64,000 nt of DNA from an uncultured Bordetella sp. (GCA_964533495.1 CAZHJU010000014.1:2421-66420); one strand, 5' to 3'. Positions 1,076 through 56,390 are shown, counted from the first letter of the stretch. Numbers and translations: made by a program. Notes: generated by a model not told the origin, from the sequence alone.

Positions 1076-1185
1076 GCGCGCTACAGAGGGCTCCGTTCCG
1101 GAATCCGCAGCCTGCCACAGACCGCGGTGATCACGGCATTATAGGGTAGCGTGGAAAACCCGCCTTGCCGTAAAAATCATCAATA

Positions 1186-1198
1186 AAACAATAACTTA
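1186..1198 (+). promoter_or_regulatory. IHF-consensus-like site AAACAATAACTTA with upstream A-tract, overlapping the yqeY stop
   Basis: One mismatch to WATCAANNNNTTR, inside an AT-rich islet (1171-1205). Confidence 0.6.
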
Positions 1199-1645
1199 TG
1201 ATTTTACGAGATGCGCCTTGACTGCGGCGGACACCTTACCCATGTCGGCGCGCCCGGCCAGCTTCGGCTTCAGCAGGGCCATCACCTTGCCCATGCCGGC
1301 CGGCCCCGTGGCGCCGGACTCGGCAACCGCCGCCGCAACCGCGGCGGCAATCTCGTCATCCCCCAAGGCCTGCGGCATGTAGGCCTGCAACAGCTCGAGT
1401 TCCTGCTTTTCCCTGTCGGCGAGATCCTGGCGCCCGCCCTGCTCGAACTGGGTGATCGAGTCGCGGCGCTGCTTGATCATTTTTTCGATCACGCCCAGCA
1501 CGTCGGCGTCGGTCAGCGTCTTGCGTTCATCGACCTCGCACTGCTTCAGCGCCGCCGTCAGCAGGCGGATGGTGTCGCGGCGCGCGGCATCGCCGCTGCG
1601 CATCGCGGCCTTGAGGTCATCATTGATCTGATCGCGCAATCCCAT
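1196..1645 (-). CDS. yqeY: GatB/YqeY domain protein
   Basis: LRDQINDDLKAAMRSGD...IEKMIKQRRDSITQF...GRADMG pattern; canonical position between rpsU and dnaG. Confidence 0.92.
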   Translation of the reverse strand: MGLRDQINDDLKAAMRSGDAARRDTIRLLTAALKQCEVDERKTLTDADVLGVIEKMIKQRRDSITQFEQGGRQDLADREKQELELLQAYMPQALGDDEIAAAVAAAVAESGATGPAGMGKVMALLKPKLAGRADMGKVSAAVKAHLVKS

Positions 1646-1666
1646 GGTGTGCTCTCCAGAAACGAC

Positions 1667-1699
1667 AAAAGGGTGCGAGGACTGGCCTCTGCACCCTTT
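1667..1699 (-). terminator. Intrinsic terminator-like hairpin after rpsU
   Basis: Minus strand reads AAAGGGTGCAGAGG-CCAGT-CCTCGCACCCTTTT; parallels the known internal terminator of the rpsU-dnaG operon. Confidence 0.65.
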
Positions 1700-1718
1700 G
1701 GCGGAACGGACCGGAAAC

Positions 1719-1931
1719 TCAGTACAGTTTCGGCGGTAACAGCTGCGAACGCAGGCGCTTGTGCGTGCGCTTCACGGCGGCGGCCAGCTTGCGCTTGCGC
1801 TCGGCGGTGGGCTTCTCGTAGAACTCGCGGGCGCGCAGCTCTGTCAGCAGGCCCGTCTTTTCGACGGTGCGCTTGAAACGGCGCAGGGCCACTTCAAACG
1901 GCTCGTTTTCCTTGACGCGTACGGTGGTCAT
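1719..1931 (-). CDS. rpsU: 30S ribosomal protein S21
   Basis: [18 protein letters not shown]...[14 protein letters not shown], 70 aa. Confidence 0.99.
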
Positions 1932-2061
1932 GAAACCTCGGGGCTGAATTCGGAAAAACGCGTATTATAACCACATCCCCGCAATAATCACAGGGGCGGG
2001 CTCAGAAACGGATTTTACGGAAACCTTCCGGACCGTTCCGGCATTGCCTGCCCGGATCCCC

Positions 2062-4109: not shown

Positions 4110-5006
4110 TCAGCCCCGCGGATGATGTTTCGCATGCAGCTGCTTCATGCGCTCCCGCGCGACATGGGTGTAGATCTGCGTGGTCGAAATGTCGGAATGC
4201 CCGAGCAACAGCTGCACCACGCGCAGGTCGGCGCCGTGGTTCAGCAGATGGGTGGCGAAGGCATGGCGCAGCGTGTGCGGTGAAACCGGCTTGCCGATTC
4301 CCGCCTGCGCGGCGTAGCGCCGCAGCAGGTGCCAGAAAGCCTGGCGCGTCATCGCGTCCGCCCGGCCGGTGACGAACAGGGCATCGCTGGTCCGTCCGCC
4401 CAGCAGCAGCGGCCGCGCTTCGCGCAGGTAGCGCTCCAGCCAGGACAGCGCCTCCTCGCCCAGCGGCACCAGCCGCTCCTTGGAACCCTTGCCCAGCACC
4501 CGCACCACGCCCATGTCGCGGCTGACCTGCGGCACCTTCAGCGTCACCAGTTCGGACACACGCAGGCCGCTGGCGTAGAGCACTTCCAGCATCGCCCGAT
4601 CGCGCAGGCCCAGCGGCCGGTCCAGGTCAGGCGCCGACAGCAGGCTCTCGACGTCCGCCTCGGTCAGCGTTTTCGGCAGCGGCCGCGGCAGTTTCGGGGT
4701 GTCGATGCGCAGCGTCGGATCGGCCTTGACCGTGTTCTGGCGGACTGCGTTGCGGTAGAACCGCTTCAGCGCCGACAGCAGCCGCGCGGCGGTGGAAGCC
4801 CGCGCCCTGGTGCGGAAACGGTGCGCGAGATAGCCCTGTATTGCCGCCTGGTCCGCCGCCAGCAGATCCAGGCCCTGCGGCTCCAGCCAGCCGGCGAACT
4901 GCTTCAGGTCGCGGCGATAGCTGTCCAGCGTGTTGCGGGCGAGGCCGTCCTCCAGCCACAGCGCATCGCAGAACTCGTCAATCAGCCGCAGCGAGGAAGC
5001 CTTCAT
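4110..5006 (-). CDS. xerD: Site-specific tyrosine recombinase XerD
   Basis: LEDGLARNTLDSYRRDL, RDRAMLEVLYASGLRVSEL, GKGSKERLVP, SPHTLRHAFATHLLNHGADLR..LGHSDISTTQIYTHV, HHPRG C-terminus. Confidence 0.97.
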   Translation of the reverse strand: MKASSLRLIDEFCDALWLEDGLARNTLDSYRRDLKQFAGWLEPQGLDLLAADQAAIQGYLAHRFRTRARASTAARLLSALKRFYRNAVRQNTVKADPTLRIDTPKLPRPLPKTLTEADVESLLSAPDLDRPLGLRDRAMLEVLYASGLRVSELVTLKVPQVSRDMGVVRVLGKGSKERLVPLGEEALSWLERYLREARPLLLGGRTSDALFVTGRADAMTRQAFWHLLRRYAAQAGIGKPVSPHTLRHAFATHLLNHGADLRVVQLLLGHSDISTTQIYTHVARERMKQLHAKHHPRG

Positions 5007-5472
5007 GCCGCAGCAGCCAGCGTTTGACCGTCAGCGGGAAATCCTTCCGCCCGCCCATGAAACCGCCCAGCCCGCCTCCCGCGGCAAGCACGCGATGGCA
5101 GGGCACGACCAGCGGCACCGGGTTCGTGCCGCAGGCGCCGCCCACGGCCCGCGCGCTGCTTTGCAGGCACGCTGCGATTTTTCCATAAGTTATTGTTTTT
5201 AAAGGAAAAAGTTTTTCTATTTCGCGCCATACCCGTTGCTGGAACGCAGTGCCATGCAGGCGGTAGGGTAACGCGAAATGATGCTGCGGATCGGCCAGAT
5301 AACGTTCGATCTCGCGGCAGGCGCGCTCGGCCACGCGGTCGTGCGGAGCGCGCTGCGCGGTATGCCGCGGCAGGTAACGGATTTCCGTGACATGCCCGTC
5401 GTCGGTGGCGATCGCCAGCACGGCAAACGGTGTCAAGTAACGCGTCTCGACGCGCGCCCGACCCGCGGTCAT
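4978..5472 (-). CDS. ogt: Methylated-DNA-[protein]-cysteine S-methyltransferase
   Basis: C-terminal 164 aa of track ORF 4978..6033: GTAFQQRVW, TYGKIA, ARAVGGACGTNP, PCHRV active site. ATG at 5472 overlaps the TRAP permease stop. Confidence 0.9.
   Translation of the reverse strand: MTAGRARVETRYLTPFAVLAIATDDGHVTEIRYLPRHTAQRAPHDRVAERACREIERYLADPQHHFALPYRLHGTAFQQRVWREIEKLFPLKTITYGKIAACLQSSARAVGGACGTNPVPLVVPCHRVLAAGGGLGGFMGGRKDFPLTVKRWLLRHEGFLAAAD
5186..5198 (-). promoter_or_regulatory. IHF-consensus-like site embedded in the ogt coding sequence
   Basis: Minus strand AAAACAATAACTTATG (5184-5199) is identical over 16 nt to the site at 1185-1200. Confidence 0.6.
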
Positions 5473-7574
5473 GCCGGTGCGGCCGCCGTTCCCCGGCGCA
5501 GTTTCTGCATCACCACCACCAGCGCGACCAGCGAGGCGCCGATCAGGTCCGAAGTCGTGGTCGGATAGACCAGCGCAAGGCCGGCGACGATCAGCATCCA
5601 GCGTTCGACGACATTGGTCCTGCGCAGCAGCCAGCCCTGCAGTCCGCCGGCCAGCGCGAGTACGCCGATGACCGCGGTGACCGAGACGACCGCGATGGAC
5701 CCCCAGTCCGCCTGCGCCAGGTTCTTGAAGGAACCGCCGAGGAGCAGGCCCGCGCCGGACGGATCGAGCACGAACATGAACGGCACCAGGAAGGCCGGCG
5801 CGCAGTATTTCCAGGACAGCAGCGTCGTGCGGTACGGCCCGCCACCGGTGATCGCCGCCGCGGCGAATGGCGACAGCGCGGTGGGCGGCGACACTTCCGA
5901 CAGCACCGCATAGTAGAAAATGAACATGTGCGCGGCGAAGTCCGGCACGCCGAGCTTGATCATCGCCGGCGCCGCAACCACCGCGCAGATGATGTACGAA
6001 GCCGTCACCGGCACCGCCAGGCCGACGATCCACACGATCAATGCCGTGTAGAAGGCGGTCAGCAGCAGTTTCATGTCATGCAGCAGCTCCGGCGTATTCG
6101 CCGCGCCGAACACGGTCAACAGGGTCACCAGCCCCTGCGCGCCGGAATCGGCGTAATCCAGCACGATCGCGCTGAACTTCAGGCCGAGGCCGGTCAGCGT
6201 CACCACGCCGACGATGATGCCGGCGGATGCGCAGGTCATCGCGACGTTGAGCACGCCCACCGAACCCGCCTCCAGCGCCTTCACGAAGCCCGATTCCCAG
6301 AACCCCCTGATCCAGGCCATGCGGCCGCGGAACCAGTCATAGGGAATCAGGGCCGAATCGCTGCGGAAGAACGAAAACAGCGCGGTGACGACCGTGGCGT
6401 AGAACACCGACAGCACCGGCGAATAGCCCATCAGCAGGAACACGACGATCGACACCAGCGAAACGAAGTGGTACCAGTATTTTTTCGCCAGTTCGAGCGG
6501 GCGGTGATGCTTCTCGAGGGCCACCGCGCGCATGTTGAACTTGCGCGCGTCGATTTCGACCATGATGAAAATCCCGAGATAGAACAGCAGGGTCGGGATC
6601 GTCGCCATCAGGATCACGTCGAGGTACGAAATCTTCAGGAACTCCGCGATCAGGAATGCCGCGGCGCCGAGGACCGGCGGCGAGATGATCGCGCCCAGCC
6701 CGCCGGCCGCCAGCAATCCGCCGGCCGCCTCCTTGCCGTAACCTGCCTTGGCCAGCAACGGATAGGCCACCGCGCCGATGGTCACCGTGGTGGCGACGCC
6801 GGAACCCGAGGGACCGCCGAGCAGGAACGAGGACATCACCACCGCGCGTCCCGCGCTGGAGGGCTTGCCGCCCATCGCCGCGAACGAGAAATCGAGGAAA
6901 AACTTGCCGGCGCCCGAAAACTGCAGGAAGGCGCCGAAAATGGTGAACAGGATGATCAGCGTCGAGGACACGTCGACCGCGACGCCGAATATGCCCTCCA
7001 GCGTCATGTACAGCGCGCCGGTAAGCCGCGCGATGTCATAGCCCTTGTGCGTCCAGGGCTGGGGCAGATAGGGGCCGAACAGCGCGTAGGCCAGGAACAG
7101 CAGCACGATGAACGGCAGTATCCAGGTCGAGCTGCGGCGGTTGGCCTCGAGAATCAGCACGATCAGCGCCACGCCCAAGATCTGGTCCATCAGCAGCGGC
7201 GTCACCGCGCGATCGCCGAACTCGTCGCCCCAGTACAGCATGTAGGCCACCACGGCGATCGAGGCGATCGCAAAAATGACATCCCACCACATCAGCCGGT
7301 GGCGGAAACGTCTGGCGATCGGGAACAGCAGGAACGTCAGCGCCAGCGCGAAAGCGACGTGGACCGGACGCAGTATGTAGGCCGGCACGATCTCCACAGC
7401 AGCATAGAGATGGAACAGCGACATGATCACGGCCGCCGCGGTGAGCATCACCGCCAGCGCGCCGCGATAGCGGTTGTGCGCCCCCTCTTCCTCTTCGATC
7501 AGTTCCTCGACGCGTTTGAGCGCCTCTTCACTGATCCCGCCGGCATCCGCCGCCCCGGTGCTGTGATCGGCCAT
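5469..7574 (-). CDS. TRAP transporter fused permease (4TM/12TM, DctQM)
   Basis: About 700 aa polytopic protein with GSGVATTVTIG, GAIISPPVLGAAAFLIAE and LSEVSPPTALSPFAAAAI motifs; follows a TAXI receptor. Confidence 0.93.
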   Translation of the reverse strand: MADHSTGAADAGGISEEALKRVEELIEEEEGAHNRYRGALAVMLTAAAVIMSLFHLYAAVEIVPAYILRPVHVAFALALTFLLFPIARRFRHRLMWWDVIFAIASIAVVAYMLYWGDEFGDRAVTPLLMDQILGVALIVLILEANRRSSTWILPFIVLLFLAYALFGPYLPQPWTHKGYDIARLTGALYMTLEGIFGVAVDVSSTLIILFTIFGAFLQFSGAGKFFLDFSFAAMGGKPSSAGRAVVMSSFLLGGPSGSGVATTVTIGAVAYPLLAKAGYGKEAAGGLLAAGGLGAIISPPVLGAAAFLIAEFLKISYLDVILMATIPTLLFYLGIFIMVEIDARKFNMRAVALEKHHRPLELAKKYWYHFVSLVSIVVFLLMGYSPVLSVFYATVVTALFSFFRSDSALIPYDWFRGRMAWIRGFWESGFVKALEAGSVGVLNVAMTCASAGIIVGVVTLTGLGLKFSAIVLDYADSGAQGLVTLLTVFGAANTPELLHDMKLLLTAFYTALIVWIVGLAVPVTASYIICAVVAAPAMIKLGVPDFAAHMFIFYYAVLSEVSPPTALSPFAAAAITGGGPYRTTLLSWKYCAPAFLVPFMFVLDPSGAGLLLGGSFKNLAQADWGSIAVVSVTAVIGVLALAGGLQGWLLRRTNVVERWMLIVAGLALVYPTTTSDLIGASLVALVVVMQKLRRGTAAAPA

Positions 7575-15330: not shown

Positions 15331-15855
15331 ATGCACCCGCTACGATCCCTCCTCACCGCCGGCGCGTTTGTCCTGGGTTTCGCGCTGGCAGGCCCCGTGG
15401 CAGCCGGCACCCTCGCGCCGCTGCCGCAGCCGACGCCGATGCCCTCGTTCAAGATCCCGGGCATCAACGGCAGCGGCGGCAGCGATGCCGACCTGCGCAA
15501 CAAGGTCACCATCATCCGCTTCTGGGCGTCGTGGTGAAGCTCCTGCGTACGCGAGCTGCCCTCCGTGCAGAGGGCGCATGACGAACTGAAAAAAGACGGC
15601 ATCCAGGTCATCACCATCTCGATCGACGGTACCGGAGGAACCGCCGTCAAGCCGATCTTCGCCAAGGGCGGCTACACCATGCCCGCGCTGCTCGACCAGG
15701 ACATGAGCGTCGCCCGCGGTTTCGGCGTGCGCGGCGTGCCATCCACGGTCATCGTCGACAAAAAAGGGCTGATCAACGCACGCGGCCTCGGCCACGTCGA
15801 TTTCGACGGCCGGGTGCTGCGCAACTACGCGCGCGACCTCGCCCGCATCAAGTGA
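15331..15855 (+). CDS. TlpA/ResA-like thiol-disulfide oxidoreductase, probable selenoprotein (UxxC; TGA at 15535-15537 read as Sec, codon 69)
   Basis: Track ORFs 15331..15537 and 15565..15855 are in the same frame. Reading through TGA gives RFWASW-U-SSC-VRELPS...GVPSTVIVD, the TlpA FWAxWCxxC motif plus the cis-Pro loop. N-terminal signal peptide. Confidence 0.88.
15557..15576 (+). promoter_or_regulatory. Candidate bacterial SECIS hairpin for the TlpA-like gene
   Basis: TGCCCTC-CGTGCA-GAGGGCG stem-loop; loop starts 26 nt after the TGA and has G at position 2. Confidence 0.55.
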
Positions 15856-16451: not shown

Positions 16452-16462
16452 AATTTCTTAAA

Positions 16463-16475
16463 AATCAAATACTTA
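16463..16475 (+). promoter_or_regulatory. IHF consensus site AATCAAATACTTA
   Basis: Perfect WATCAANNNNTTR with an upstream AT tract, between the convergent Prx and yciI-like genes. Confidence 0.65.
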
Positions 16476-16489
16476 TGTAGATTCCCCGG

Positions 16490-16792
16490 TCAGGCGCCCT
16501 CGGCCGCGCCCGGATTCCACTGCCCCTTGCGCATGCGGGTGATGGTGATGCTCTGAAATACGCCCTTCTGCGTAAAGGGATCGCCGTCGGAAAATTTTTT
16601 CGCTTCCGCGCGGCTGTTGACGTTGACGATGAACAAGCTGCCGACGGCCGCTGTGCCTTCGTCGTTCTGCGTCGCGCCGGCAAGCACGAGAATGTGCTTC
16701 TGGCTGCCGAGATACTCGCGGTGGGGAATCAGCACCGATTCGCGGATCGCCGCGGTATTCGGTTTGTCGACGCAGGAAATGGCCCAAAGCAT
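16490..16792 (-). CDS. YciI family protein
   Basis: CVDKPNT..IRE....HREYL, AG...ND....GSLFIV, DPF...GVF. Confidence 0.88.
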   Translation of the reverse strand: MLWAISCVDKPNTAAIRESVLIPHREYLGSQKHILVLAGATQNDEGTAAVGSLFIVNVNSRAEAKKFSDGDPFTQKGVFQSITITRMRKGQWNPGAAEGA

Positions 16793-31329: not shown

Positions 31330-31371
31330 TAATCTATAAATATTTGTTTTTATTGATATTTTTATAGATTA
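31330..31371. repeat. AT-rich 11-bp inverted repeat overlapping an IHF-like site
   Basis: TAATCTATAAA-N20-TTTATAGATTA; minus-strand AAACAAATATTTA at 31337-31349. Confidence 0.65.
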
Positions 31372-43950: not shown

Positions 43951-43970
43951 GGGGGCACTTCCACATCGCA

Positions 43971-44008
43971 CGGCCGTGCGCGCCATACCGGCGCACGGCC
44001 GCTTTTTT
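43971..44008 (+). terminator. Terminator-like hairpin between nosZ and nosR
   Basis: CGGCCGTGCGC-N9-GCGCACGGCCG-C-TTTTTT ending 4 nt before the first nosR ATG. Confidence 0.7.
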
Positions 44009-44012
44009 GGCC

Positions 44013-46631
44013 ATGACCATGCACAGAATCCTCCCACGACTGCTCCTCGCCGCCGTGCTGCTGATGGCGGCCGGCGCGCGGGCGGCCGGCGGCGCCTACG
44101 AAGCCGAACTGCCCGCGGAAATCAACAGCGCGAAGAACCTCTGCGCAATGGTTCCCTGCGGCAGCGTGTTTCCGGGCGCCGCCTCCTTTTCCGAGCGCAA
44201 GGGCCGGCCGCCCTACGTCGAGGCCTACGGCGAGGCCGATGCCGCCGGCGCCAGGAAGCTGCTCGGCTACGTCATGCTGTCGACCGACATCACCGACACG
44301 CCGGCCTACTCCGGCAAGCCGGTGATCACCCTGATCGGCATGGACACCGAGGGGCGCTACACCGGCGTCAAGGTGCTCAAGCATTCCGAACCCATCCTGC
44401 TGCTCGGCATCCCCGAGTCGGCGCTCGATCAATTCAACGCCCAGTACATCGGCAAGTCGGTCAGGGACCGCATCGAAGTCGGCCCGGACCGCCCGTCCGA
44501 GGACGTGATCGGCGTCGACGCCATCTCCGGCGCCACCGTCACCGTCATCGCCCAGAACCAGGTGATGCATCTTTCCGGTTCGGCGGTGGCGCGGCAGACC
44601 GGCATCATCGCGCCGACGGTGCGGGAGCCCGCGCGATACCAGCTGCGCGGCGCGCGCCTCGGCTGGAACGAGCTGGTGAAGCTCGGCGCGGTGCAGCGGC
44701 TCCGGGTCATGCCCCAACAGGTCGGCCTCGAACGCGGCGCCGACCCTTTCATCGAGCTGTGGTTCGGCGATCTCAATCATCCGGACGTCGCCACGAGCCT
44801 GCTCGGCGCGCGCGGCTACGCCAACCTGCGCGCGAGCCTCGCCGAAGGCGATCACGCCCTGTTCGTGATCCGCACCGCCGGCAGGGAATCCTTCAAGGGA
44901 TCAGGCTTCGTGCGCGGCGGCCTCTACGACCGGGTGCAGGTCAAGCAGGGGGCCGACGCCTTCACCTTCCGCGATCTCGACGCCCTCAACCTCTACGGGC
45001 TCGAGGCCGAAGACGCGCCGCGCTACGACGAATCCGCGATCTTCATCATCCGCGGCGCCGGATTCTCCGCGGCCTACCCCTGGAAGCTCGCCTTCCTCGG
45101 CAACCGCGTCGACCGCGCCACCGGCCACCGCAGCTTCGCCGTGTTCGAATCCGGGCTCTGGCTCGACGCCGGCCTGCTCGCCGGCGGCCGCCCGAAGATC
45201 GAGAAGCCGGTCCCGCCGTGGCTGCGCATCTGGCGGGACCGTGCGCCGGAGATCGCCCTGTTCGTCACGCTGCTCGCCGGCGTCGCCGTGGTCTACGCCT
45301 TCCGCGAACGCCTCACCCGCATGTCCACCCACAAGAACAAGTGGCCGGTGAACGCGTTCAAATATTCGGCCTGGACCGTGAGCATCATCTGGATCGGTTT
45401 CGGCGTCATGGCGCAGCCGTCGATCACCCAGGTGCTCACCTGGTTCCACTCGCTGCTGTTCAAGTGGACCTGGTCGCTGTTCCTGTCCGATCCGTTCATC
45501 TTCGTGTTCTGGATCTTCATCATCGTCACCGTGTTCCTGTTCGGCCGCGGCCTGTTCTGCGGCTGGCTGTGCCCGTTCGGCTCGCTCTCGGAGATGATCT
45601 ACAAGGTCGGTGAAAAAATCGGCCTCAAGCGCTGGCAGCGCAAGCTGCCGCAGCGCGTGCACGACCGCCTGAAATGGGTCAAGTACGGCATCTTCTTCGG
45701 CCTGCTCGCGGTGTCGATGTTCTCGATGGCGCTGGCCGAGGTGCTGGCGGAAGTCGAGCCCTTCAAGACGACCTTCCTCGTCGGCATCGCCAACCGCGCC
45801 TGGCCGTACGGCCTGTTCGTGGCGGTCCTGCTGGGCCTTTCGCTGTTCATCGAGCGCCCGTACTGCAAGTACCTCTGCCCGCTGGGCGCCGCGCTGGCAA
45901 TGCCAAGCACCTTCCGCTGGTTCGGACTGCGCCGCAAGCAGGACTGCAACAGCTGCAAGGCCTGCGCCACCGGCTGCGGCTCGCTCGCCATCGATGCCGC
46001 CGGCCGCATCGACCACCGCGAATGCCTGCACTGCCTCGACTGCATGGTGCTCTACACCGACGTCACCGCCTGCCCGCCGCTGTCGCGCGAGCGCAAGCGC
46101 CGGGAGCGCGCCGGCCTCGCGCTGACGCCGATCGGCCGGGACGGCTACTACATCCCGATCCAGCCGGCGCCGGACGACGCCGCTGCGCGCAAGGCCGCCG
46201 CCGGACCGGATCCGCGCATGCCCACCGACCCGGTGCAGCTGCCCTACATGGAAAAAGCCGGCCTGGCGCGCTGGATCGCGCTCGAGGTGTACGAACACCT
46301 CTGGCCGTGGAGCGCCAAGGGCTGGCACGACCAGCGCGCGCTGCAGATCGCCGGCATTTCGCTCGCCGTCGCCGCCACCGTCGCCTGGCTGCTGGCGATC
46401 AGCGGCAACCTCTCCTCGGGCGCGATCATCGGCTGGTGGTTCGGCTGGAGCGTCTATGAAGTGCTGATCCGCCTGTCGGGACGGCGCTACGTCAAGGACG
46501 GCCCGTGGTGGAAGCGCAACTACCGCCATGCCGGCGTGATGGACATGCTCAGCTACGTCGCCTTCAAGAACCTGCTGATCGGCGCCACGCTGTTCCTGGC
46601 GCTGAAGGCGCTCGACATCCTACCCGGCTAA
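44013..46631 (+). CDS. nosR: NosR/NirI membrane Fe-S flavoprotein
   Basis: Signal/TM, FMN-binding DAISGATVT, CGWLCPFG, YCKYLCPLGA, CNSCKACATGC, ECLHCLDC. Start 44013 or 44019. Confidence 0.95.
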   Translation: MTMHRILPRLLLAAVLLMAAGARAAGGAYEAELPAEINSAKNLCAMVPCGSVFPGAASFSERKGRPPYVEAYGEADAAGARKLLGYVMLSTDITDTPAYSGKPVITLIGMDTEGRYTGVKVLKHSEPILLLGIPESALDQFNAQYIGKSVRDRIEVGPDRPSEDVIGVDAISGATVTVIAQNQVMHLSGSAVARQTGIIAPTVREPARYQLRGARLGWNELVKLGAVQRLRVMPQQVGLERGADPFIELWFGDLNHPDVATSLLGARGYANLRASLAEGDHALFVIRTAGRESFKGSGFVRGGLYDRVQVKQGADAFTFRDLDALNLYGLEAEDAPRYDESAIFIIRGAGFSAAYPWKLAFLGNRVDRATGHRSFAVFESGLWLDAGLLAGGRPKIEKPVPPWLRIWRDRAPEIALFVTLLAGVAVVYAFRERLTRMSTHKNKWPVNAFKYSAWTVSIIWIGFGVMAQPSITQVLTWFHSLLFKWTWSLFLSDPFIFVFWIFIIVTVFLFGRGLFCGWLCPFGSLSEMIYKVGEKIGLKRWQRKLPQRVHDRLKWVKYGIFFGLLAVSMFSMALAEVLAEVEPFKTTFLVGIANRAWPYGLFVAVLLGLSLFIERPYCKYLCPLGAALAMPSTFRWFGLRRKQDCNSCKACATGCGSLAIDAAGRIDHRECLHCLDCMVLYTDVTACPPLSRERKRRERAGLALTPIGRDGYYIPIQPAPDDAAARKAAAGPDPRMPTDPVQLPYMEKAGLARWIALEVYEHLWPWSAKGWHDQRALQIAGISLAVAATVAWLLAISGNLSSGAIIGWWFGWSVYEVLIRLSGRRYVKDGPWWKRNYRHAGVMDMLSYVAFKNLLIGATLFLALKALDILPG

Positions 46632-46632
46632 A

Positions 46633-47910
46633 ATGCAAAAAATAATTAATAATCAAATACTTATAGTATCGTTCGCAGCGGCACTGCTCGCCGCCACGGG
46701 CGCCGCCGCCGCCACCCTCAACATCGCCCCCGGCAGCGACCTGCAGCAGGCGATCGCGCAGGCCCGGGCCGGCGACGTGCTCGAAATCGGGCGCGGCCTC
46801 TACACCGGCAATTTCCGCATCGACAAGCCGCTCACGCTGCGCGGCGTCGGGCGGCCGACGATCAGCGGCGGCCTGACCGGCAGCACGCTCACCGTCGAGG
46901 CGCCCGACGTCACCGTCGAGAACGTCATCGTGCGCGACTCCGGCGACAGCCTGAAGAACCAGAACGCCGGCATCTACGTGCGCCCCGGCGCGCACCGCTT
47001 CGCGCTGCGCAACTCCGACCTCACCTACAACCTGTTCGGGCTGTGGATCGAAAAGGCCGACGACGTCGTCATCGAGCGCAACATCATCACCGGCAAGCGC
47101 GACTACAATTCGCCGCTGCGCGGCAACGGCATCCAGCTCTACAACACCACCGGTGCGCGCATCATCGGCAACAACATCGGCTTCGTGCGCGATGCGCTCT
47201 ACGTCGACGTCTCCCACCGGGCGGTGTTCCGCGGCAACAGGCTCCACCACAGCCGCTATGGCACCCACTACATGAACTCCTACCACAACCTGTGGGAGGA
47301 CAACGACAGCTACGCCAACCGCGGCGGCCTCGCGCTGATGGAGGTGCGCGACCAGGTCATCCGCAACAACCGCGCCTGGAACAACAGCGACCACGGCATC
47401 ATGCTGCGCACGCTGCAGGACTCGCTGGTCGAGGGCAACGTCATCGCGGGCAACAACCGCGGTTTCTTCATCTACGACGTCGAATACGCCACGCTGCGCG
47501 GCAACCTCGTCATCAACAACCGGGTCGGCGTGCACCTCTCCGCCGGCTCCACCCGCAACAGCGTCGAGCGCAACGACTTCATCGCCAACCGCGAGCAGGT
47601 GCGCTACGTCGGCGCGAAGGACGAGGCGTGGGGCGTGAAGGAGGGCAACTACTGGGGCAACTATCTCGGCTGGGACAGCGACGGCGACGGCCGCGGCGAC
47701 CAGCCCTACGAAGCCAACGACATCGTCGACCGCCTTCTGTGGCGCCACCCGGGCGCGCGGCTGCTGATGGCAAGCCCGGCGATCCAGGCCCTGCGCCTGG
47801 CCGCGCAGCAGTTCCCGCTGCTGCGCGTGCCCACGGTCGTCGACAGACATCCGCGCATGCGCCCGCACAATCCCGACTGGAGCCGCTGGCATGGCCGCAT
47901 CACCGACTGA
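46633..47910 (+). CDS. nosD: NosD periplasmic copper-insertion protein (beta-helix)
   Basis: GNGIQLYN, HSRYGTHYM, GNYW..Y.GWD.DGDG.GD.PY, LLMASPA. Confidence 0.96.
   Translation: MQKIINNQILIVSFAAALLAATGAAAATLNIAPGSDLQQAIAQARAGDVLEIGRGLYTGNFRIDKPLTLRGVGRPTISGGLTGSTLTVEAPDVTVENVIVRDSGDSLKNQNAGIYVRPGAHRFALRNSDLTYNLFGLWIEKADDVVIERNIITGKRDYNSPLRGNGIQLYNTTGARIIGNNIGFVRDALYVDVSHRAVFRGNRLHHSRYGTHYMNSYHNLWEDNDSYANRGGLALMEVRDQVIRNNRAWNNSDHGIMLRTLQDSLVEGNVIAGNNRGFFIYDVEYATLRGNLVINNRVGVHLSAGSTRNSVERNDFIANREQVRYVGAKDEAWGVKEGNYWGNYLGWDSDGDGRGDQPYEANDIVDRLLWRHPGARLLMASPAIQALRLAAQQFPLLRVPTVVDRHPRMRPHNPDWSRWHGRITD
46651..46663 (+). promoter_or_regulatory. IHF consensus site AATCAAATACTTA within nosD codons 7-11
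   Basis: Perfect consensus, identical to 16463-16475, preceded by AAAAAATAATT. Confidence 0.65.
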
Positions 47911-48823
47911 AGCCGCCGCCCCGGCGATCGAACTGCGCGGCGTGCGCAAGCACTTCGGCGCGCTGTGCGCCGTCGACGGCATCGACCTGCGCGTCCGCGC
48001 CGGCGAGATCCTCGGCCTGATCGGCCGCAACGGCGCCGGCAAGAGCACCCTGTTCAAGCTGATGCTCGGCCTGGAGCAGCCCACCGCAGGCGAAGTCAGC
48101 GTCGCCGGCGTGCCGGTGGCGGGCCCGCGCTTCCGCGACACCCGCCGCCGCATCGGCTACCTGCCCGAGAACATCGCGCTCTACGACAACCTGAGCGGCC
48201 TCGAGACGCTGCGCTTCTTCGCGCGGCTGAAGGGCGCGCCTCTGCACCAGTGCGACACCCGGCTGGCCGAGGCCGGGCTTTCGGAGGCCGCCGGCCGGCC
48301 CGTGCGCGAATACTCCAAGGGCATGCGCCAGCGCCTCGGCATCGCGCAGGCGCTGCTCGGCTCGCCCCGGCTGCTGTTCTTCGACGAGCCCACCAACGGC
48401 CTCGATCCGCAGGCGATCCGCGACTTCTACCGCCGGATCCACGCGCTACGCGACGGCGGCGCCACCATCGTCATCAGCTCGCACATCCTCGCCGAGCTGC
48501 AGCAGCGCGTCGACCGGCTGGCCATCATCGCCGACGGCCGGCTGCGCGCCAGCGGCAGCGTCGCCGAGCTGCGCAGCCGCACCGCCATGCCCGTCGTCTT
48601 CGCGCTGGAACTCGCGCCCGGGGACATCGCCGCGACGGCGGCCAGCCTCGCCGACGTCGAAAGCCTCGGCGTCACTGCCACCGACCGCGGCCTCGACCTC
48701 GCCTGCCCGGCGGCGCAGCGCGCCACGGTGCTGGAAGCGGTGCTCCGGCTCGGCCCGCGCGTGCGCAACCTGCAGATCAACGAACCCTCGCTCGAAGACA
48801 TGTTCTTCGGCCTCGAGCGCTGA
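47891..48823 (+). CDS. nosF: ABC ATPase NosF
   Basis: GRNGAGKST Walker A, YSKGMRQRLG, FFDEPTNGLDP; follows nosD. Confidence 0.95.
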   Translation: MAASPTEAAAPAIELRGVRKHFGALCAVDGIDLRVRAGEILGLIGRNGAGKSTLFKLMLGLEQPTAGEVSVAGVPVAGPRFRDTRRRIGYLPENIALYDNLSGLETLRFFARLKGAPLHQCDTRLAEAGLSEAAGRPVREYSKGMRQRLGIAQALLGSPRLLFFDEPTNGLDPQAIRDFYRRIHALRDGGATIVISSHILAELQQRVDRLAIIADGRLRASGSVAELRSRTAMPVVFALELAPGDIAATAASLADVESLGVTATDRGLDLACPAAQRATVLEAVLRLGPRVRNLQINEPSLEDMFFGLER

Positions 48824-48827
48824 CGCC

Positions 48828-49643
48828 ATGAGCCCCATCAACCTGCGGACCATCGCCGGCAAGGAACTGCGCGACCGCATGCGCAACCACTGGGTGCTGG
48901 CCATCGCGCTGGTGTTCACCGCCTTCTCGCTGATCATCGCCTACTTCGGCGGCGCGCAGCAGGGCACCATCGGCTTCCGCTCGCTCGAATTCACCATCAC
49001 CAGCCTGGTGAGCCTGGTGATCTACCTGATCCCGCTGATCGGGCTGCTGCTCGGCTTCGACGCCATCGTCGCCGAGCGCGAGCGCGGCTCGCTCGACCTG
49101 CTGCTGACCCTGCCGCTGACGCCGCTCGACCTGCTGCTCGGCAAATATCTCGGCCTCGCCGCCGCGCTGGCGCTGTCCACGCTGCTCGGCTTCGCGCTGG
49201 TCGCGGGCCTGCTCTACATCCAGTTCGGCAACGCGGCGCTGTTCCACTTCGGCGGCTTCATGCTGAGCGCGCTGCTGCTGGGCATGGCGTTCCTCAGCAT
49301 CGCCGTGCTGATCTCGGTGATCGCGCGCGACCGCACCCGCGCCTCGGGCATGGCCGTCGCGGCATGGTTCGCCTTCGTGCTGGTGTTCGACCTGCTGCTG
49401 CTCGGCGTGATGGTCGCCAGCGATGGCCGATGGGGCGGCGGCGCGCTGGCCTACCTGCTGCTGCTCAACCCCGCCGACGTCTTCCGCATCCTCAACCTGT
49501 TCTCCGTCGAACAGGCCGCGGCCGCCTACGGCCTCACCCAACTGCTGCCCCCGGCGCTCGCCCGCGCCCCGGTGATGGGCGCGGCGATGGCGGCCTGGAT
49601 AATCCTTCCCCTGATGATCGCCAGCTGGAGATTCAAACGATGA
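48828..49643 (+). CDS. nosY: ABC permease NosY
   Basis: IAGKELRD..RNHW, YLIPLIGLLLGFDAIV.ERERGSLDLLL, LLLNPADVFRI. Confidence 0.95.
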   Translation: MSPINLRTIAGKELRDRMRNHWVLAIALVFTAFSLIIAYFGGAQQGTIGFRSLEFTITSLVSLVIYLIPLIGLLLGFDAIVAERERGSLDLLLTLPLTPLDLLLGKYLGLAAALALSTLLGFALVAGLLYIQFGNAALFHFGGFMLSALLLGMAFLSIAVLISVIARDRTRASGMAVAAWFAFVLVFDLLLLGVMVASDGRWGGGALAYLLLLNPADVFRILNLFSVEQAAAAYGLTQLLPPALARAPVMGAAMAAWIILPLMIASWRFKR

Positions 49644-50236
49644 CCGACACGACCCGCGTCAAGACTGCATGCTCCTGCGGCACCTCCCACACCCGTCCCG
49701 ACAGCACCGGGCGCCGCGCGCTGCTCCGGTTCGCCGGGCTCGCCGCGCTCGGCTTCGCCGGCGGCCTCGCTGGCTGCGACTCCGGCGGCAGCGGCCAGGC
49801 CCGCGGCCCGGCCGAGATCGGTCCGGGCTCCGCCTGCCATCTCGACGGCATGCTGCTCGCCGAGTACCCCGGCCCCAAGGGCCAGATCCTCGTCGCCGGC
49901 CTCGTCGAGCCGATGTTCTTTTGCGACACGACGGAACTCTTCAACACCGTGCTCGCCGGCGAGCAGGCGCTGCGGATCGAAGGCATCTACGTGCAGGACA
50001 TGGGGCAGGCCAAGTGGGAAGAGCCCCGCGGCCACTGGTTCGACGCGCGCCAGGGCTGGTACGTGATCGGCAGCAAGCGCCACGGCTCGATGGGCCCCAC
50101 CATCGCCAGCTTCGCGCAGGAAGCCGACGCCCGGCGCCACGCCGCCGACTACGGCGGCAAGGTGCTGAAGTACGAGCAGATCACCCGCGAGATGGTCGAC
50201 CTCAGCGGCGGCGCGCTGCACGACCAGCGGATGTAG
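49640..50236 (+). CDS. nosL: Copper chaperone NosL (Tat lipoprotein)
   Basis: GRRALL, LAGC lipobox, CHLDGMLLAEYPGPKGQI, YVQDM, GSMGP. Confidence 0.95.
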   Translation: MTDTTRVKTACSCGTSHTRPDSTGRRALLRFAGLAALGFAGGLAGCDSGGSGQARGPAEIGPGSACHLDGMLLAEYPGPKGQILVAGLVEPMFFCDTTELFNTVLAGEQALRIEGIYVQDMGQAKWEEPRGHWFDARQGWYVIGSKRHGSMGPTIASFAQEADARRHAADYGGKVLKYEQITREMVDLSGGALHDQRM

Positions 50237-51806: not shown

Positions 51807-52448
51807 TCAGAACACCGCCGGCAGCAGCAACCCGAAGGCGCCGATCAGCAGCAGCGCCATCAGCGTGATGATGACCCCGGCGGCGCGCGGATGCGCCGCC
51901 ACCTGCGCATCGAGCCCGGTGTTCATCGCGTCGGCGCCCTTGGCCATGCGCCGCTCCGAATACCAGTCGCTGCCGCGCGCCTCCATCCGCGACAGCAGGC
52001 CCGGAAAAAACGCGAGCAGGATGCCGACGGCGATGCCCAGCGCATTGCCGGCAATCAACAGCCAGCGCGCGCTGTCGGCGAGCCACAGCGCGAGATCCGG
52101 CCGCAGCGATTCCAGGCCCAGCAGGCGGGCCGCCGCGCGGGCGTCATACTGCGTCAGCAGGCCGGAAATCGCGAACACGCCGGCGGCGATCACGAAGACT
52201 GCGATCAGGTGCCGACGGCGGCGCACCAGCGGCTGCGTGTCGCGGGGAATCTCCAGCGGCCGCGTCGCGCGCCGCATCGACACCCAACGGTTCAGCGTCC
52301 CGAAAAAACGCAGCGCCGCGGCGCTGCGGAGGATCAGGGCCGCACCCGCCGCAAGCAGCACGAGGCCGCTGATGAAAAAAAACAGCACCGCCGATTGCGC
52401 AAACCACAGGCGAAACACCGGCGTATCGAGCAGGTTCAGCACGTCCAT
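51807..52448 (-). CDS. Hypothetical membrane protein (about 4 TM, internal repeat)
   Basis: AAGGAG RBS; hydrophobic segments; RWVSMRR..RP and WYSERR..K repeated halves. Confidence 0.65.
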   Translation of the reverse strand: MDVLNLLDTPVFRLWFAQSAVLFFFISGLVLLAAGAALILRSAAALRFFGTLNRWVSMRRATRPLEIPRDTQPLVRRRRHLIAVFVIAAGVFAISGLLTQYDARAAARLLGLESLRPDLALWLADSARWLLIAGNALGIAVGILLAFFPGLLSRMEARGSDWYSERRMAKGADAMNTGLDAQVAAHPRAAGVIITLMALLLIGAFGLLLPAVF

Positions 52449-52658
52449 GGACCGCTCCTTCACAAGACCGCCGGCCAGGCCGGCAGACGGTTCCGCATCT
52501 TACCCGGCAAGCCCGCGCTGGAATTCCGCCGCGGCCGCGTTTATTCTCTGGGCATTCCACAACAACAGGCGCTGCGCGCTCCCGCGACACGTGCCACGAC
52601 GGGAACAACACCTTCAACCCCGGGCCAATCTTCGCGGCCATGACGGGGCGGTATTTCA

Positions 52659-52671
52659 TAAGTTATTGATT
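52659..52671 (-). promoter_or_regulatory. IHF consensus site AATCAATAACTTA
   Basis: Perfect consensus on the minus strand with an A-tract; shares TATTGATATTTTTAT (52673-52687) with 31351-31365. Confidence 0.7.
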
Positions 52672-52736
52672 ATATTGATATTTTTATGAATCTCGCTCTC
52701 AACCCGACGCAGGCTGCCAGCCACCGCTGACCACCG

Positions 52737-53318
52737 ATGTTCCGCCTCCGCGACAGTGAATTCCTGATGCGCCACCGTCCGGCGATCTTCGGATTGATGT
52801 GGGGCGTGATGGGCATCGCACTGCTGATGGCGGCGCTGCAGGGCCGGACCGTTCCCGGCCGCGAGGATCTGCGTCAGGCCTCGGGCATCATTGACGGGCT
52901 GCGCACCGACAGCCGCTACGTCCGCTACGGCCCCAACGTCGACATCCTCCACCTGCGGCTGCGTGGCGCGGACACTGAATACGTGATCGACAGCGGGCGC
53001 ATGAACGGCCCCGGCCCCTACTATCGCGCCAGCCGCGCGCTGCGCCGCGGCAGCCCGGTCACGCTGTGGTACGAGCCGCACCCCGATTTCGGCAACCGCC
53101 TGTGGCAGATCGACCAGCAGGGCCGCCGCCTGCTCGACTACCGCGAAACCTTCGACCACGAAACCGGCGAGCAGATGAACAGCTGGCTGTGGCTGCTCGG
53201 CTACCTCGGCGCCACCCTGGCCGTGGTGCCGTTGCTGCTGGCCTGGCACAAGCGCCTGCGGGCAGGCGAGGCGAAGAACAAGAAACCCGGCAGGGACAGA
53301 CACAACATGACTATCTGA
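52737..53318 (+). CDS. Hypothetical membrane protein (DUF3592-like: TM, beta domain, TM)
   Basis: Two hydrophobic segments flank a soluble domain with a GSPVTLWYEP pattern. Confidence 0.6.
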   Translation: MFRLRDSEFLMRHRPAIFGLMWGVMGIALLMAALQGRTVPGREDLRQASGIIDGLRTDSRYVRYGPNVDILHLRLRGADTEYVIDSGRMNGPGPYYRASRALRRGSPVTLWYEPHPDFGNRLWQIDQQGRRLLDYRETFDHETGEQMNSWLWLLGYLGATLAVVPLLLAWHKRLRAGEAKNKKPGRDRHNMTI

Positions 53319-53427: not shown

Positions 53428-53456
53428 AACAAACCAACTGACAAAAAGCAACCCGC

Positions 53457-54911
53457 ATGAGCGACACCACCAACACCCTCGACATCAACGCCACCTTCCG
53501 CAGCGGCGGCCGTTCCATCGAATGGCTCGACGAAATCAACAAGGCTTCTATCGTCATGCTGGCCGAAACCGGCATCGTGCCGAAGGACGTCGCCGCGCGT
53601 ATCGCCAAAGGCATCGCGCAACTGATCGAGAACGAACGCACGGGCGCCAACAACACCACGCCGCGCACGTCGGCGGATTACCTCGACTACGAACCGCGGC
53701 TGATCGCGCTGGCCGGACCGGAAGCCTCGCGGCTGCACACCGGCCGCAGCCGGCAGGACCTGGCCTCGACCATCGCGCGGATGAACCTGCGCGACCAGTT
53801 GCTGCAGGTCACGCAGGCGGTGATCGCCGCGCGCGAAAGCCTGCTCAAACGCGCCGGGGAACATATCGAGACCATCATCCCCGCCTACACCCACGGCGTG
53901 CAGGCCCAACCGACGACGTTTGCCCACTACCTGCTCGCCTTCGAGTCTGCGCTCGCGCGCGCGACCGAGCGCCTGCAGCAAGTCTATGCACGGGTAAACA
54001 AATGTCCGCTCGGCGCGGCGGCACTGGCCACCTCCAGCTTCCCGCTCGACCGCCACCGCCTGGCGGAACTGCTGGGTTTCGACGGCCTAGTCGAAAACGC
54101 CTACGACGCCAACCACCTCGCGCCCATCGACAGCGCGCTGGAAGTCGCCGGCGCCTACAGCATCCTCATGGTCGAGACCGGCATGTTCGCGCAGGACATC
54201 CACGCCCAGTACGCCGAACCCCGGCCCTGGTTCATGCTGGCCGAAGGCAAGCTCACCGGCACCAGCAGCATCATGCCGCAGAAGCGCAACCCCGCGGCCC
54301 TCGAACAACTGCGCGCGCAATCGAGCATCACGCTGAGTGAAATGCAGACCATGACCTGGGTATCGCACAACAACCGCACGGGCATGTTCGACTACCGCAT
54401 GTACGACCCGGTGCCGGCGACGCGGCTGCTGAAGGTGCTGGAAATCCTGAAACAGGTCGCCGATGCCATCGTCGTCAACAAGGAACGCGCGCTGGAAGAG
54501 GTCAACGCCGACTACTCCACCACCACCGAGATCGCCGATGCGCTGCTGCAGAAGGCCGAAGTGCCGTTTCGCATTGGGCATCACTTCGCCAGCAAGCTGA
54601 CGGATTACGGGCGGGGCAAGGGCTTAAGGCTGCAGGAGATTCCGTTTGCGGAGGCGCAGCGGATTTATGAGGAACCGGCCAAGAGCAAGATGCCGCTGAC
54701 GGAGAAGGAATTCCGCGAGGTGATCAGTGCGGAATATATGGTATCTGAGAGGAAGGGATTGGGGGGACCACAGAGTGAAGAAACCAAACGGAAGCTTTCC
54801 GAAACCGTGACCCAAACCAAAACGAGCATTGGTTGGTTAAACGATCAGCTCAAAAAAACTAACCAAACAAAAGGAGTCATTGGCACAACGTTTAGCAAAC
54901 TGATTAAATAA
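53457..54911 (+). CDS. Argininosuccinate lyase-like protein (fumarase/aspartase superfamily; probably a paralog)
   Basis: LHTGRSRQD, PAYTHGVQAQP, PLGAAAL, SSIMPQKRNP, VPFR..HH; lacks the usual ArgH LWGGRF N-terminus. Confidence 0.85.
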   Translation: MSDTTNTLDINATFRSGGRSIEWLDEINKASIVMLAETGIVPKDVAARIAKGIAQLIENERTGANNTTPRTSADYLDYEPRLIALAGPEASRLHTGRSRQDLASTIARMNLRDQLLQVTQAVIAARESLLKRAGEHIETIIPAYTHGVQAQPTTFAHYLLAFESALARATERLQQVYARVNKCPLGAAALATSSFPLDRHRLAELLGFDGLVENAYDANHLAPIDSALEVAGAYSILMVETGMFAQDIHAQYAEPRPWFMLAEGKLTGTSSIMPQKRNPAALEQLRAQSSITLSEMQTMTWVSHNNRTGMFDYRMYDPVPATRLLKVLEILKQVADAIVVNKERALEEVNADYSTTTEIADALLQKAEVPFRIGHHFASKLTDYGRGKGLRLQEIPFAEAQRIYEEPAKSKMPLTEKEFREVISAEYMVSERKGLGGPQSEETKRKLSETVTQTKTSIGWLNDQLKKTNQTKGVIGTTFSKLIK

Positions 54912-54987
54912 ATCAACTCCGCCACCCACAGATTGCTGCGTGATCATGCAGCATTAATTGAGAGAACCGATTATCCAGTCGCTTTGA

Positions 54988-55668
54988 TTACCCCACCTTG
55001 TATTGGGCCTTACGCTGAAACATTGCCAATTGCTCAACATGGCCTTTACGTTTTGCCTTCCCAAGCCGGGAGTTTTGCTCAACATCTTCATTACCCCATT
55101 GAGACCAACCTGATCGACAAAATCTTGCAAAAAGTTCGAGATAGGGGCCAGGCGAGCACGATTCAACTATTCCGTAAATACCGTCTGGTTTACGCGAATG
55201 CTCTCTTTTTTGGGAAACCATAATGTTTGTCTGACGCCTCCCGGGCGGAAGAGTACGCATGTGCCCCCGCACACCGAACAAAACCAACTCCGTGACATTC
55301 CTAAAGTAAAAACCAACCCCGCGACCGTCGGGCCCTCCGTCTTTTCTAACCTTGTACCAAACCAAATTTGATTTGTACTTGAAGCCCCATGCACGCATAA
55401 CCTGAAGCCCTTCAGCCAATAGCGCATTAGGCACCCATAGGTACAAATGTGAATTTTCCGCAGAAACCTGCGCCACCGGAATCTCACAGATTTCTTCTAA
55501 ATCCATGGTCGGATAACGAAGCAATCTCTGATGCTCAGGCGCCATCTTTCCCGTCCGATTCTCGAACCGCCAAGGTGGATCGGCAACGATGGTTGAATAA
55601 AGTCCGGTTACCTTCGCCGCAAAATCCTGCGCGGCGGTCGGCCTGGCAATGCTAACTATTTTTGTCAT
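54988..55668 (-). CDS. MT-A70 family adenine DNA methyltransferase
   Basis: YSTIVADPPW, YPTM, LYLWVPN, WGFKYK..LVWYK, GVGFYFRNVTE..LFG.RG, HSRKPD, YLELFAR. Confidence 0.93.
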   Translation of the reverse strand: MTKIVSIARPTAAQDFAAKVTGLYSTIVADPPWRFENRTGKMAPEHQRLLRYPTMDLEEICEIPVAQVSAENSHLYLWVPNALLAEGLQVMRAWGFKYKSNLVWYKVRKDGGPDGRGVGFYFRNVTELVLFGVRGHMRTLPPGRRQTNIMVSQKREHSRKPDGIYGIVESCSPGPYLELFARFCRSGWSQWGNEDVEQNSRLGKAKRKGHVEQLAMFQRKAQYKVG

Positions 55669-56242
55669 AGAGGGAAGATTTGATTCCAAAAACCAGCAAT
55701 GGGCAACCAGCGCCACCACCGCCTTGAATTCGGGGAAGCAACTTTGACATATGAGTAGTCGAGTTGCCGTAAGACGAGCCTCGACCCAGGGAATTGAAAA
55801 TTTTCTGGAGTTCGTCCGACCGGGTGATGATCACACCAACCGACACCACACGTAAATCAAACAACAAACGAAAATTGTTTAAATCTCGATCAAAAAAAGG
55901 ATCTTTGTTATTCCACTCGATCTCCAAAGCTATCCTATTTTTAAAGCAATCAACCTCGTGCGTAGGAGAGTCAATCTGCGTCTGATCAACCACAATTCTG
56001 GTATCAAAGTTTTTTGCTACCCAACCGTACCTTGATAATTCGCCGTCGATCCATTTTGAAATCGGCGATTTATTACCACCGCCCTTGGCTATCCAGCTTT
56101 TTCTAACCCTGAAACGGGTAAGAACATCTACGATCTCGTTCAGCTCATGGGGAAAATCACGCGCCAAAATTGCACAAGCGTGTCGCCATTGATGCACCTC
56201 ATAATTTTCCCTGATGAATTGGGGGAAGACGTCAATTGCCAT
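55652..56242 (-). CDS. BglII/BstYI-family type II restriction endonuclease
   Basis: THEVDCFKNRIALEIEWNNKDPFFDRDL PD-(D/E)xK-type core; overlaps the MTase; low GC. Confidence 0.82.
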   Translation of the reverse strand: MAIDVFPQFIRENYEVHQWRHACAILARDFPHELNEIVDVLTRFRVRKSWIAKGGGNKSPISKWIDGELSRYGWVAKNFDTRIVVDQTQIDSPTHEVDCFKNRIALEIEWNNKDPFFDRDLNNFRLLFDLRVVSVGVIITRSDELQKIFNSLGRGSSYGNSTTHMSKLLPRIQGGGGAGCPLLVFGIKSSLYDKNS

Positions 56243-56322
56243 GAACTGATTCCCAAAAAGTATCCCTAAGCCAATTGCGCTCGCAGAATATACTGACAGT
56301 CATTGCAACGGCAAGAATTCTT

Positions 56323-56335
56323 TAAGTAATTGTTT
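56323..56335 (-). promoter_or_regulatory. IHF-consensus-like site AAACAATTACTTA at the right edge of the R-M cassette
   Basis: One mismatch to the consensus, in an AT-rich intergenic region. Confidence 0.55.
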
Positions 56336-56390
56336 TATAAATATTTAGCTGTCACCACCTCAATAAAAACAATCCCGCAAAAGGATATCC

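Follow-up and report, generated by a model that had tools for sequence, protein, structure and literature searches.

The question raised by this locus is what a set of short AT-rich islets is doing at scattered places in a GC-rich bacterial chromosome. The window, by which we mean the whole 64,000-nt stretch analysed (positions 2421-66420 of contig C14), belongs to a Burkholderiales metagenome-assembled genome (MAG) of 3.03 Mb, 65.8% GC and 83 contigs. An initial annotation of the window had pointed out seven islets with the core WA(T/A)CAA-N4-TTA and had read them as dispersed architectural sites of the type bound by integration host factor (IHF), not as promoter elements; this interpretation was supported by every computational test that the annotation had proposed. 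We propose, with moderate confidence and judging from sequence, that the islets are selected, stand-alone, near-optimal IHF sites, the bulk of which would serve chromosome architecture or insulation. The occupancy by IHF, the bending and the architectural role are what we infer.

The motif and its match to IHF sites

Pattern matching recovered all seven cores at the coordinates and on the strands first given for them. Three, at 16463(+), 46651(+) and 52659(−), have the perfect core WATCAANNNNTTR, and the other four, at 1186(+), 5186(−), 31337(−) and 56323(−), carry the T-to-A variant, just as had been claimed; the identities of 16, 14 and 15 nt said to be shared between copies can be read directly in the oriented flanks. 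The broader pattern WAWCAANNNNTTA occurred 7 times relative to 0.16 expected per window, and none of 100 dinucleotide shuffles reached 7. For the perfect consensus taken alone, the excess in the window was only marginal (0.47 expected, 3 seen, and 2 of 100 shuffles reached 3). The observation was settled as real by the genome-wide count, in which the 13-mer pattern had 328 matches, about 7 per 64 kb and thus the window's own density.

When all copies were aligned, the conserved unit proved to be 31 nt long, AAAAAWWTCAATAAAAWCAAWTACTTATAAA, with composition dropping sharply to background on both sides. In the extended logo an A-tract occupies positions −14 to −10 and the core positions 0 to 12. 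The frequency of A is 0.78-0.85 at −14 to −11 and 0.59 at −10, and at least four of these five positions are A in 271 of 355 sites. As nhmmer profile searches were too insensitive for a 35-nt motif, we scanned the genome with a position weight matrix (PWM) and, as a composition-matched null, with the reversed matrix, which has identical composition and preserves AT-richness. At a score of at least 28 there were 363 hits with the PWM and 14 with its reverse, so that the density was far above the null; merging of overlaps left 355 sites, 168 with the perfect core WATCAANNNNTTR and 150 with the variant WAACAA.

Among these sites 343 of 355 31-mers were distinct and the flanks were unrelated GC-rich DNA; the motif is therefore not a recently amplified repeat. 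Inverted-repeat flanks are present in some window copies; genome-wide, however, they were no commoner than in cross-copy controls, the longest complementarity having means of 4.95 within copies relative to 4.90 between copies, and 4.60 relative to 4.61. We therefore rejected a hairpin-forming repeat, whether a repetitive extragenic palindrome (REP), a MITE (miniature transposable element with inverted repeats) or a terminator. No Rfam family matched within the window, and literature searches found no publication describing this motif family.

A classical high-affinity IHF site consists of WATCAANNNNTTR and an upstream dA+dT element. Here the start of the A-tract is 14 nt away from the core W on the 5' side, which is its position in the lambda H' site (AAAAAAGCATTGCTTATCAATTTGTTG), the geometry of which is reportedly to be found in work by Craig and Nash in 1984 and by Rice and colleagues in 1996. 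In Table 2 of PMC6907758 the rows for the IHF and H-NS motifs appear to be interchanged, and the comparison does not draw on that table. The sequence thus supported the claim that the islets carry the IHF consensus including its A-tract at the H'-site distance. The genome encodes both IHF subunits, IhfA (C21:6895-7170) and IhfB (C15:28065-28340), 72% and 62% identical to those of E. coli, and their β-ribbon arms are intact, with the RPGRNPKTGE arm kept in IhfA and R42, R46 and P64 kept in IhfB.

Placement at σ54 promoters pointed in the same direction. Among 19 σ54-type promoters (those with a downstream gene were counted), five had a site whose centre lay 19-51 nt upstream of the −24 element, relative to 4.3% of all genes (p=0.001). 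The five genes encode a type IV pilin, an NrtA-type transporter, a gcw_chp outer-membrane protein/porin, and two glycine-zipper lipoproteins, and NtrC-like TGCACC...GGTGCA enhancer repeats lie further upstream of these promoters. The order enhancer, IHF site, σ54 promoter is the textbook arrangement. At C23:46514 and C2:94480, before the gcw_chp and NrtA-type genes, TGCACC-N-GGTGCA, an IHF-type site and a σ54 promoter stand together, and these two are predicted nitrogen-regulated promoters.

Two variants of the motif were encountered in other genomes. Copies at 1889-1924 of locus L106 (G007) and at 1210-1245 of locus L112 (G012) belong to a subtype with GTTTAAAAACA instead of TCAATAAAAWCAA; its centre is near-palindromic and scores on both strands, so such sites could be readable in either orientation. 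At one locus (among L156-L175) of G087, a genome of clade f8, a tandem array of ACAAACAAC... followed by CACATTA repeats gave a chance match to the 13-mer.

Spacing, conservation and distribution among genomes

Genes were called with a custom codon-usage caller (2726 genes, 86% coding), which gave approximate counts of context. Intergenic sites made up 296 of the 355, with 201 between tandem, 50 between convergent and 45 between divergent genes; the other 59 were 52 that overlapped called genes and 7 at contig edges. The genic share was thus about 15% relative to 86% coding, and at 53% GC it was 8 of 61 (13%) relative to 87% coding. There was no strand bias with respect to transcription (101 of the 201 tandem sites were on the transcribed strand) or to GC skew (p=0.10). 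The lack of a fixed orientation argues against a promoter, terminator or RNA element and for a signal that acts on duplex DNA.

To analyse spacing we used a null in which the same number of sites was dealt randomly among the real intergenic regions. In the genome under study (G000) the coefficient of variation (CV) of the gaps between neighbours was 0.62-0.68 relative to 0.93-0.96 in the null, and gaps shorter than 3 kb made up 10% relative to 27-29% expected (z about −7). The outcome was the same under several further nulls in which the choice of spacers was limited by length or type. Density was uniform, with 0.8-1.6 sites per 10 kb on each of the 25 largest contigs and one per 8.5 kb overall. 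The even spacing was replicated on a 690-kb contig of a second species, G200 (65 sites, CV 0.55, none of 2000 null draws as low), and in clade f8, where the density was one per 5 kb and gaps shorter than 2 kb made up 13.5% relative to 34% expected. The sites are, therefore, over-dispersed in three genomes.

Comparison of G000 with the 690 kb of G200 (median protein identity 89%) showed that position and sequence are both conserved. A site was present in the syntenic spacer of G200 for 38 of 50 site-bearing but for only 3 of 352 site-free spacers of G000 (odds ratio about 370), and orthologous motifs were 83% identical relative to 45% for the 20 nt on each side. Of the 12 sites "lost" in G200, about half were recognizable as decayed remnants in place, so point mutation accounts for both the birth and the loss of sites, as it does for binding sites. 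Between the AhpC-type and YCII genes of the window, exactly one site in constant orientation relative to AhpC was found in 14 of 16 genomes of the genus, even though 0-2.4 kb of differing genes lie between the conserved pair and the intergenic DNA cannot be aligned. These results support the earlier claim that the set is under selection.

The alternative offered in the same annotation, that the islets mark insertion hotspots, was also supported, as site-bearing intergenic regions changed length 7-10 times more often than others. Between the two species, changes of more than 300 bp affected 28-35% of site-bearing but 4-7% of site-free spacers of comparable length (odds ratio 7-10). Examples in the window are the AhpC-YCII spacer, the spacer containing the 52659 site, and a probable restriction-modification island next to the 56323 site. 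The sites may attract insertions, or else they may mark places that tolerate them.

We then surveyed 201 genomes from 60 families of the order with a strict 20-mer of the motif. Copies were numerous in just two groups, g1, to which the window belongs (71-127 copies), and genus g8 of family f8 (9-33 copies); no other genome had more than 2, and the backwards control was essentially zero. The 13-mer core relative to its backwards control gave 325 and 13 matches in G000 and 502-620 and 45-76 in f8 (at 53% GC, roughly one in ten matches to the bare core is background). The ratio was near 1:1 in eight of nine other genomes tested, while the counts in G074 (11 and 3) and G063 (30 and 9) were too low to judge. 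Clade f8, of 53% GC, has an extended motif almost identical to that of G000, AAAAWATTSAATATAATCAAWWAGTTAYA, in which core position 3 is T in 89% of copies; this is a further line of evidence for IHF. In a tree of GyrB, g1 grouped with its sister genus G074, which is HU-less and motif-poor (support 100/100), and f8 grouped with f12, which has HU and no motif (support 100/99). On this tree of a single gene, the two motif-rich clades are thus not sisters.

The motif-rich genomes are also unusual in their content of nucleoid-associated proteins (NAPs). In the good genomes of g1, and in G025 of f8, the HU/IHF family is represented by exactly two genes, ihfA and ihfB. Only 11 of the 201 genomes have just two PF00216 genes, 6 of the 7 motif-rich genomes relative to 5 of the 194 others. 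No H-NS family gene (PF00816) was found in 19 genomes of the genus or in G025; the family was found in four other families of organisms. The association of motif abundance with absence of HU and H-NS is suggestive and rests on two events.

The seven sites and their neighbouring genes

In the window, the sites at 16463 and 31337 were confirmed to lie between convergent genes, as had been described. The rest of the earlier account of context was borne out in part: the 1186 site does overlap a gene end, the yqeY stop codon, but only the 46651 site, not two sites, lies within coding sequence. The sites at 5186, 52659 and 56323 are intergenic by our gene calls, the latter two in promoter-side spacers.

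Of the two convergent sites, that at 16449-16479 (+), with a perfect core and a PWM score of 50.3, fills the 39-nt gap between the AhpC-type gene (16110-16451, +) and the YCII gene (16490-16792, −). The AhpC/peroxiredoxin region was called as two same-strand open reading frames (ORFs), 15876-16097 and 16110-16451, with a further ORF at 15565-15855. The site at 31333-31363 (−), a near-consensus copy of the T-to-A variant, has the highest score in the window (58.2) and lies between a gene without assigned family (30635-31312, +) and a CoA-transferase III gene (31394-32539, −). Also near-consensus is the site at 52655-52685 (−), with a perfect core and a score of 55.2, in the divergent intergenic region between genes 51807-52463 (−) and 52737-53318 (+); its orthologous counterpart in G200 lies in a spacer of 3311 nt, relative to 274 nt here.

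Two sites lie in spacers between genes of the minus strand. The site at 1172-1202 (+) has the T-to-A core, is one base shorter between TCAAT and the core, and scores 36.7. It lies between yqeY (1196-1639, −) and dnaG (to 1075, −), with the yqeY stop codon inside the motif, and no counterpart was found at the orthologous dnaG-yqeY spacer of G200. The site at 5182-5212 (−), a T-to-A variant of the CCTTTAAAAACAA subtype with a weak A-tract (score 38.5), lies between genes for a TRAP DctM-type transporter (5469-7574, −) and a XerC/D-like integrase (4110-5006, −), and its orthologous site is present in G200.

The site at 46637-46667 (+; perfect core, score 45.9) is at the nosR-nosD junction and is kept in a 97%-identical relative (L005). 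Translated in frame, it forms the first ~11 codons of nosD, giving the protein an N-terminal extension MQKIINNQILIV..., and the corresponding sequence in the relative is MKKILNNQILIL; other genera lack the extension, their nosD beginning at the stop codon of nosR. The motif accounts for unusual AT-rich extensions at the N-terminus, of which that of NosD is one. The surrounding nitrous-oxide reductase cluster (42070-50236) contains nosR (44055-46631), nosD (46633-47910) and more genes on the same strand; the 626-aa ORF at 42070-43950, upstream of nosR, is presumably nosZ.

The seventh site, 56319-56349 (−), is a marginal member, with the core only, no A-tract, and a score of 29.2, near the threshold of 28. 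On one side of it is a BglII-like restriction endonuclease gene (55652-56242, −) and on the other an aminotransferase gene (56391-57596, +). The endonuclease gene is overlapped by an MT-A70 family methyltransferase gene (54988-55719, −), and together they span 54988-56242, a 53%-GC patch in the 66%-GC genome bounded on one side by the weak site. The patch is probably a type II restriction-modification island gained by horizontal transfer.

Alternative readings and known systems

In the reading that we favour, IHF sites of architectural function, the 31-nt unit would provide what an H'-type site requires. The narrow minor groove of the A-tract would clamp one flank, and WA(T/A)CAA-N4-TTA would be read by the β-ribbon arms and the body of the protein. 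The IHF α/β heterodimer encoded by the genome would occupy the sites and, to go by E. coli IHF, bend them by more than 160 degrees. Selection would keep about 355 intergenic sites in either orientation, about one per 8 kb, avoiding neighbours closer than about 3 kb. A few of these would do the classic job between NtrC-type enhancer and σ54 promoter; the bulk would most likely act on the DNA itself, as architectural bends at fixed points, as anchors of loops, or as barriers that keep supercoils from diffusing, and the result would be a sequence-encoded nucleoid layout in a lineage without HU and H-NS. A bolder version, which we regard as tentative and rather less likely to be right than wrong, is that two HU-less and H-NS-less lineages converged independently on a sequence-encoded nucleoid, in which an array of near-optimal IHF sites, about one per 5-8 kb and held at even distances by selection, fixes sharp bends or the boundaries of loops and supercoil domains and marks places where genes can be inserted harmlessly. 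If true, this would be the first bacterial chromosome whose fine-scale domain layout is readable directly from the DNA.

Several observations weigh against the favoured reading. The organisms are uncultured MAGs, and the gene caller was crude. The motif carries about 49 bits relative to the genome background and 24 bits relative to a 90%-AT one, more than E. coli IHF needs, and it contains, between A-tract and core, a WWTCAATAA block that is outside the classical consensus. Another factor may therefore take part, or the optimum may differ. The block also puts a second TCAA 9 nt upstream of the TCAA of the core, and the two proline-induced kinks made by IHF are 9 bp apart; a relation between these distances is speculation only. 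In a check for oriC, no strong site and no convincing cluster of DnaA boxes was found upstream of dnaA, and there was no signal of compensating gain near lost sites (n=12, p=0.93). With respect to NAP content, G087, which is motif-rich and of clade f8, has a third HU/IHF-family gene. We also rejected loss of HU as a sufficient cause of motif abundance, as G074, G040, G067, G178 and G215 have two PF00216 genes and no motif excess.

The closest rival to the architectural reading also has IHF bound, but would make the bulk of the sites orientation-independent transcription roadblocks or boundaries at gene ends, replacing intrinsic terminators. We consider this unlikely, although it has more in its favour than any other alternative. 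In tandem regions the median distance from a site to the upstream stop codon was 9 nt, and in about 40% the stop codon was inside the motif or at most 2 nt away. When convergent spacers of equal length were compared, a terminator-like hairpin was present in 14% of those with a site relative to 47% of those without (p=7e-4). In divergent spacers the relation was reversed (15% with a site relative to 4% without; p=0.009). IHF sites of the E. coli RIB/BIME-1 elements (BIME, bacterial interspersed mosaic element) are likewise found where transcription units end, on the 3' side (PMC3333891). Lack of space in spacers of 79 nt may, however, account for the shortage of terminators, and the corresponding difference in tandem regions (9% relative to 13%) was not significant. 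Furthermore, 45 sites are divergent and some are inside operons, as at nosR-nosD, and a boundary function alone would leave the avoidance of neighbours within 3 kb unexplained.

It is improbable, in our judgement, that the sites are bound by something other than IHF, for example an AT-hook or xenogeneic-silencer-type NAP, or a clade-specific factor that reads the full 31 nt. The left half of the motif, TCAATAAAAW, does resemble the high-affinity motif of H-NS (TCGATAAATT), the information content is above that of classical IHF sites, and the motif is found in two clades only, though IHF is universal in the order. Opposed to these points are the failure to find an H-NS family gene in 19 genomes of the genus or in G025, though no search was aimed at a clade-specific candidate protein, the position-by-position fit of an asymmetric motif to IHF including the offset of the A-tract, and a placement at σ54 promoters that is the position of IHF.

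Slightly less credible still is a signal for DNA uptake or self-recognition, like the uptake signal sequences (USS) of Pasteurellaceae or the DNA uptake sequences (DUS) of Neisseriaceae, with the likeness to IHF sites incidental. Such a signal would be clade-specific, equal on both strands and evenly spaced, as this motif is and as the USS of Haemophilus is in its spacing; the motif can also stand in frame within coding sequence, as in nosD, and a type IV pilin gene is present. Known uptake systems have roughly one signal per kb, however, as opposed to one per 8.5 kb here and one per 5 kb in f8, and there is strong exclusion of the motif from coding sequence, even where the GC content is 53%. 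The match of core, spacer and A-tract to IHF and the placement at σ54 promoters would have to be coincidence. Moreover, nearly the same sequence is found in two non-sister clades, which is expected of the optimum of a conserved protein and not of a clade-private tag.

Least credible of all, and very improbable, is that the sites are functionless relics of a selfish MITE- or REP-like repeat that carried an IHF site: similar copies do number in the hundreds and lie at gene boundaries, and IHF sites do ride on repeats in E. coli RIB/BIME-1 and in the Correia elements of Neisseria, but here flanking inverted repeats are no commoner than in controls, distinct copies abut unrelated GC-rich DNA, positions are conserved, the motif is far better conserved than its flanks, losses occur by decay in situ, spacing is over-dispersed, and one copy is in frame in nosD.

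If the sites are IHF sites with a mainly architectural role, their interest lies in a recognizable, conserved, predicted bender site at regular intervals, in lineages lacking the two NAP families by which such signals are usually blurred. Provided that IHF binds, a defined 31-bp element makes testable the replacement of non-specific HU by a specific bender, the insulation of supercoiling or anchoring of loops by fixed bends, and the concentration of gene gain and loss at these points. In practical terms, the motif can help to annotate these MAGs, in which it is a marker of the boundaries of genes.

Comparison with known systems brings out what is particular to the set. Lambda attP H' and other classical IHF sites share with it the core, the N4 spacer, the TTR and the A-tract offset, and, for a subset, the position between enhancer and σ54 promoter. 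They differ in that here there are hundreds of sites of near-identical quality per genome and no degenerate regulon, half of them have A for T at core position 3, there is the extra WWTCAATAA block, and most are at no promoter, recombination site or origin. The Correia elements of Neisseria likewise provide a betaproteobacterial lineage with an abundant, intergenic, functional-looking IHF site. They are, however, MITEs of 100-150 bp with terminal inverted repeats and TA duplications, whose presence varies between strains, whereas the unit here is 31 nt, has no terminal inverted repeats, and is positionally stable. USS and DUS are similar in being clade-specific, on both strands, evenly spaced and subject to point mutation in situ; they are dissimilar in that the motif is about 10 times less dense, excluded from coding DNA, IHF-like in sequence and present in two non-sister clades.

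What the set has in common with matS/MatP and parS/ParB is that the sites are short and conserved and that the function resides in their distribution over the genome, not in the genes nearby (PMC6907758, for matS), but those systems have tens of sites confined to one region, whereas the sites described here occur on every contig. In E. coli, domain barriers on a scale of about 10 kb appear randomly placed, and their identity is unsettled (PMC6907758). The nearest described system is RIB/RIP (BIME-1) of E. coli, in which the L linker that joins two REP palindromic units contains the IHF site (Boccard and Prentki 1993, in PMC3333891) and for which a role in chromosome structuring or topological insulation has been proposed (PMC6907758, PMC3333891). 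Its sites, like ours, are dispersed and intergenic, often just past the 3' ends of genes; in our set many sites abut stop codons, yet there are the divergent and intra-operon sites, and convergent spacers with a site have terminators more rarely. Unlike RIB/BIME-1, the sites described here have no flanking REP palindromes and no sign of a REP-associated transposase mechanism, and they combine conservation at orthologous positions, even spacing and a link to NAP loss.

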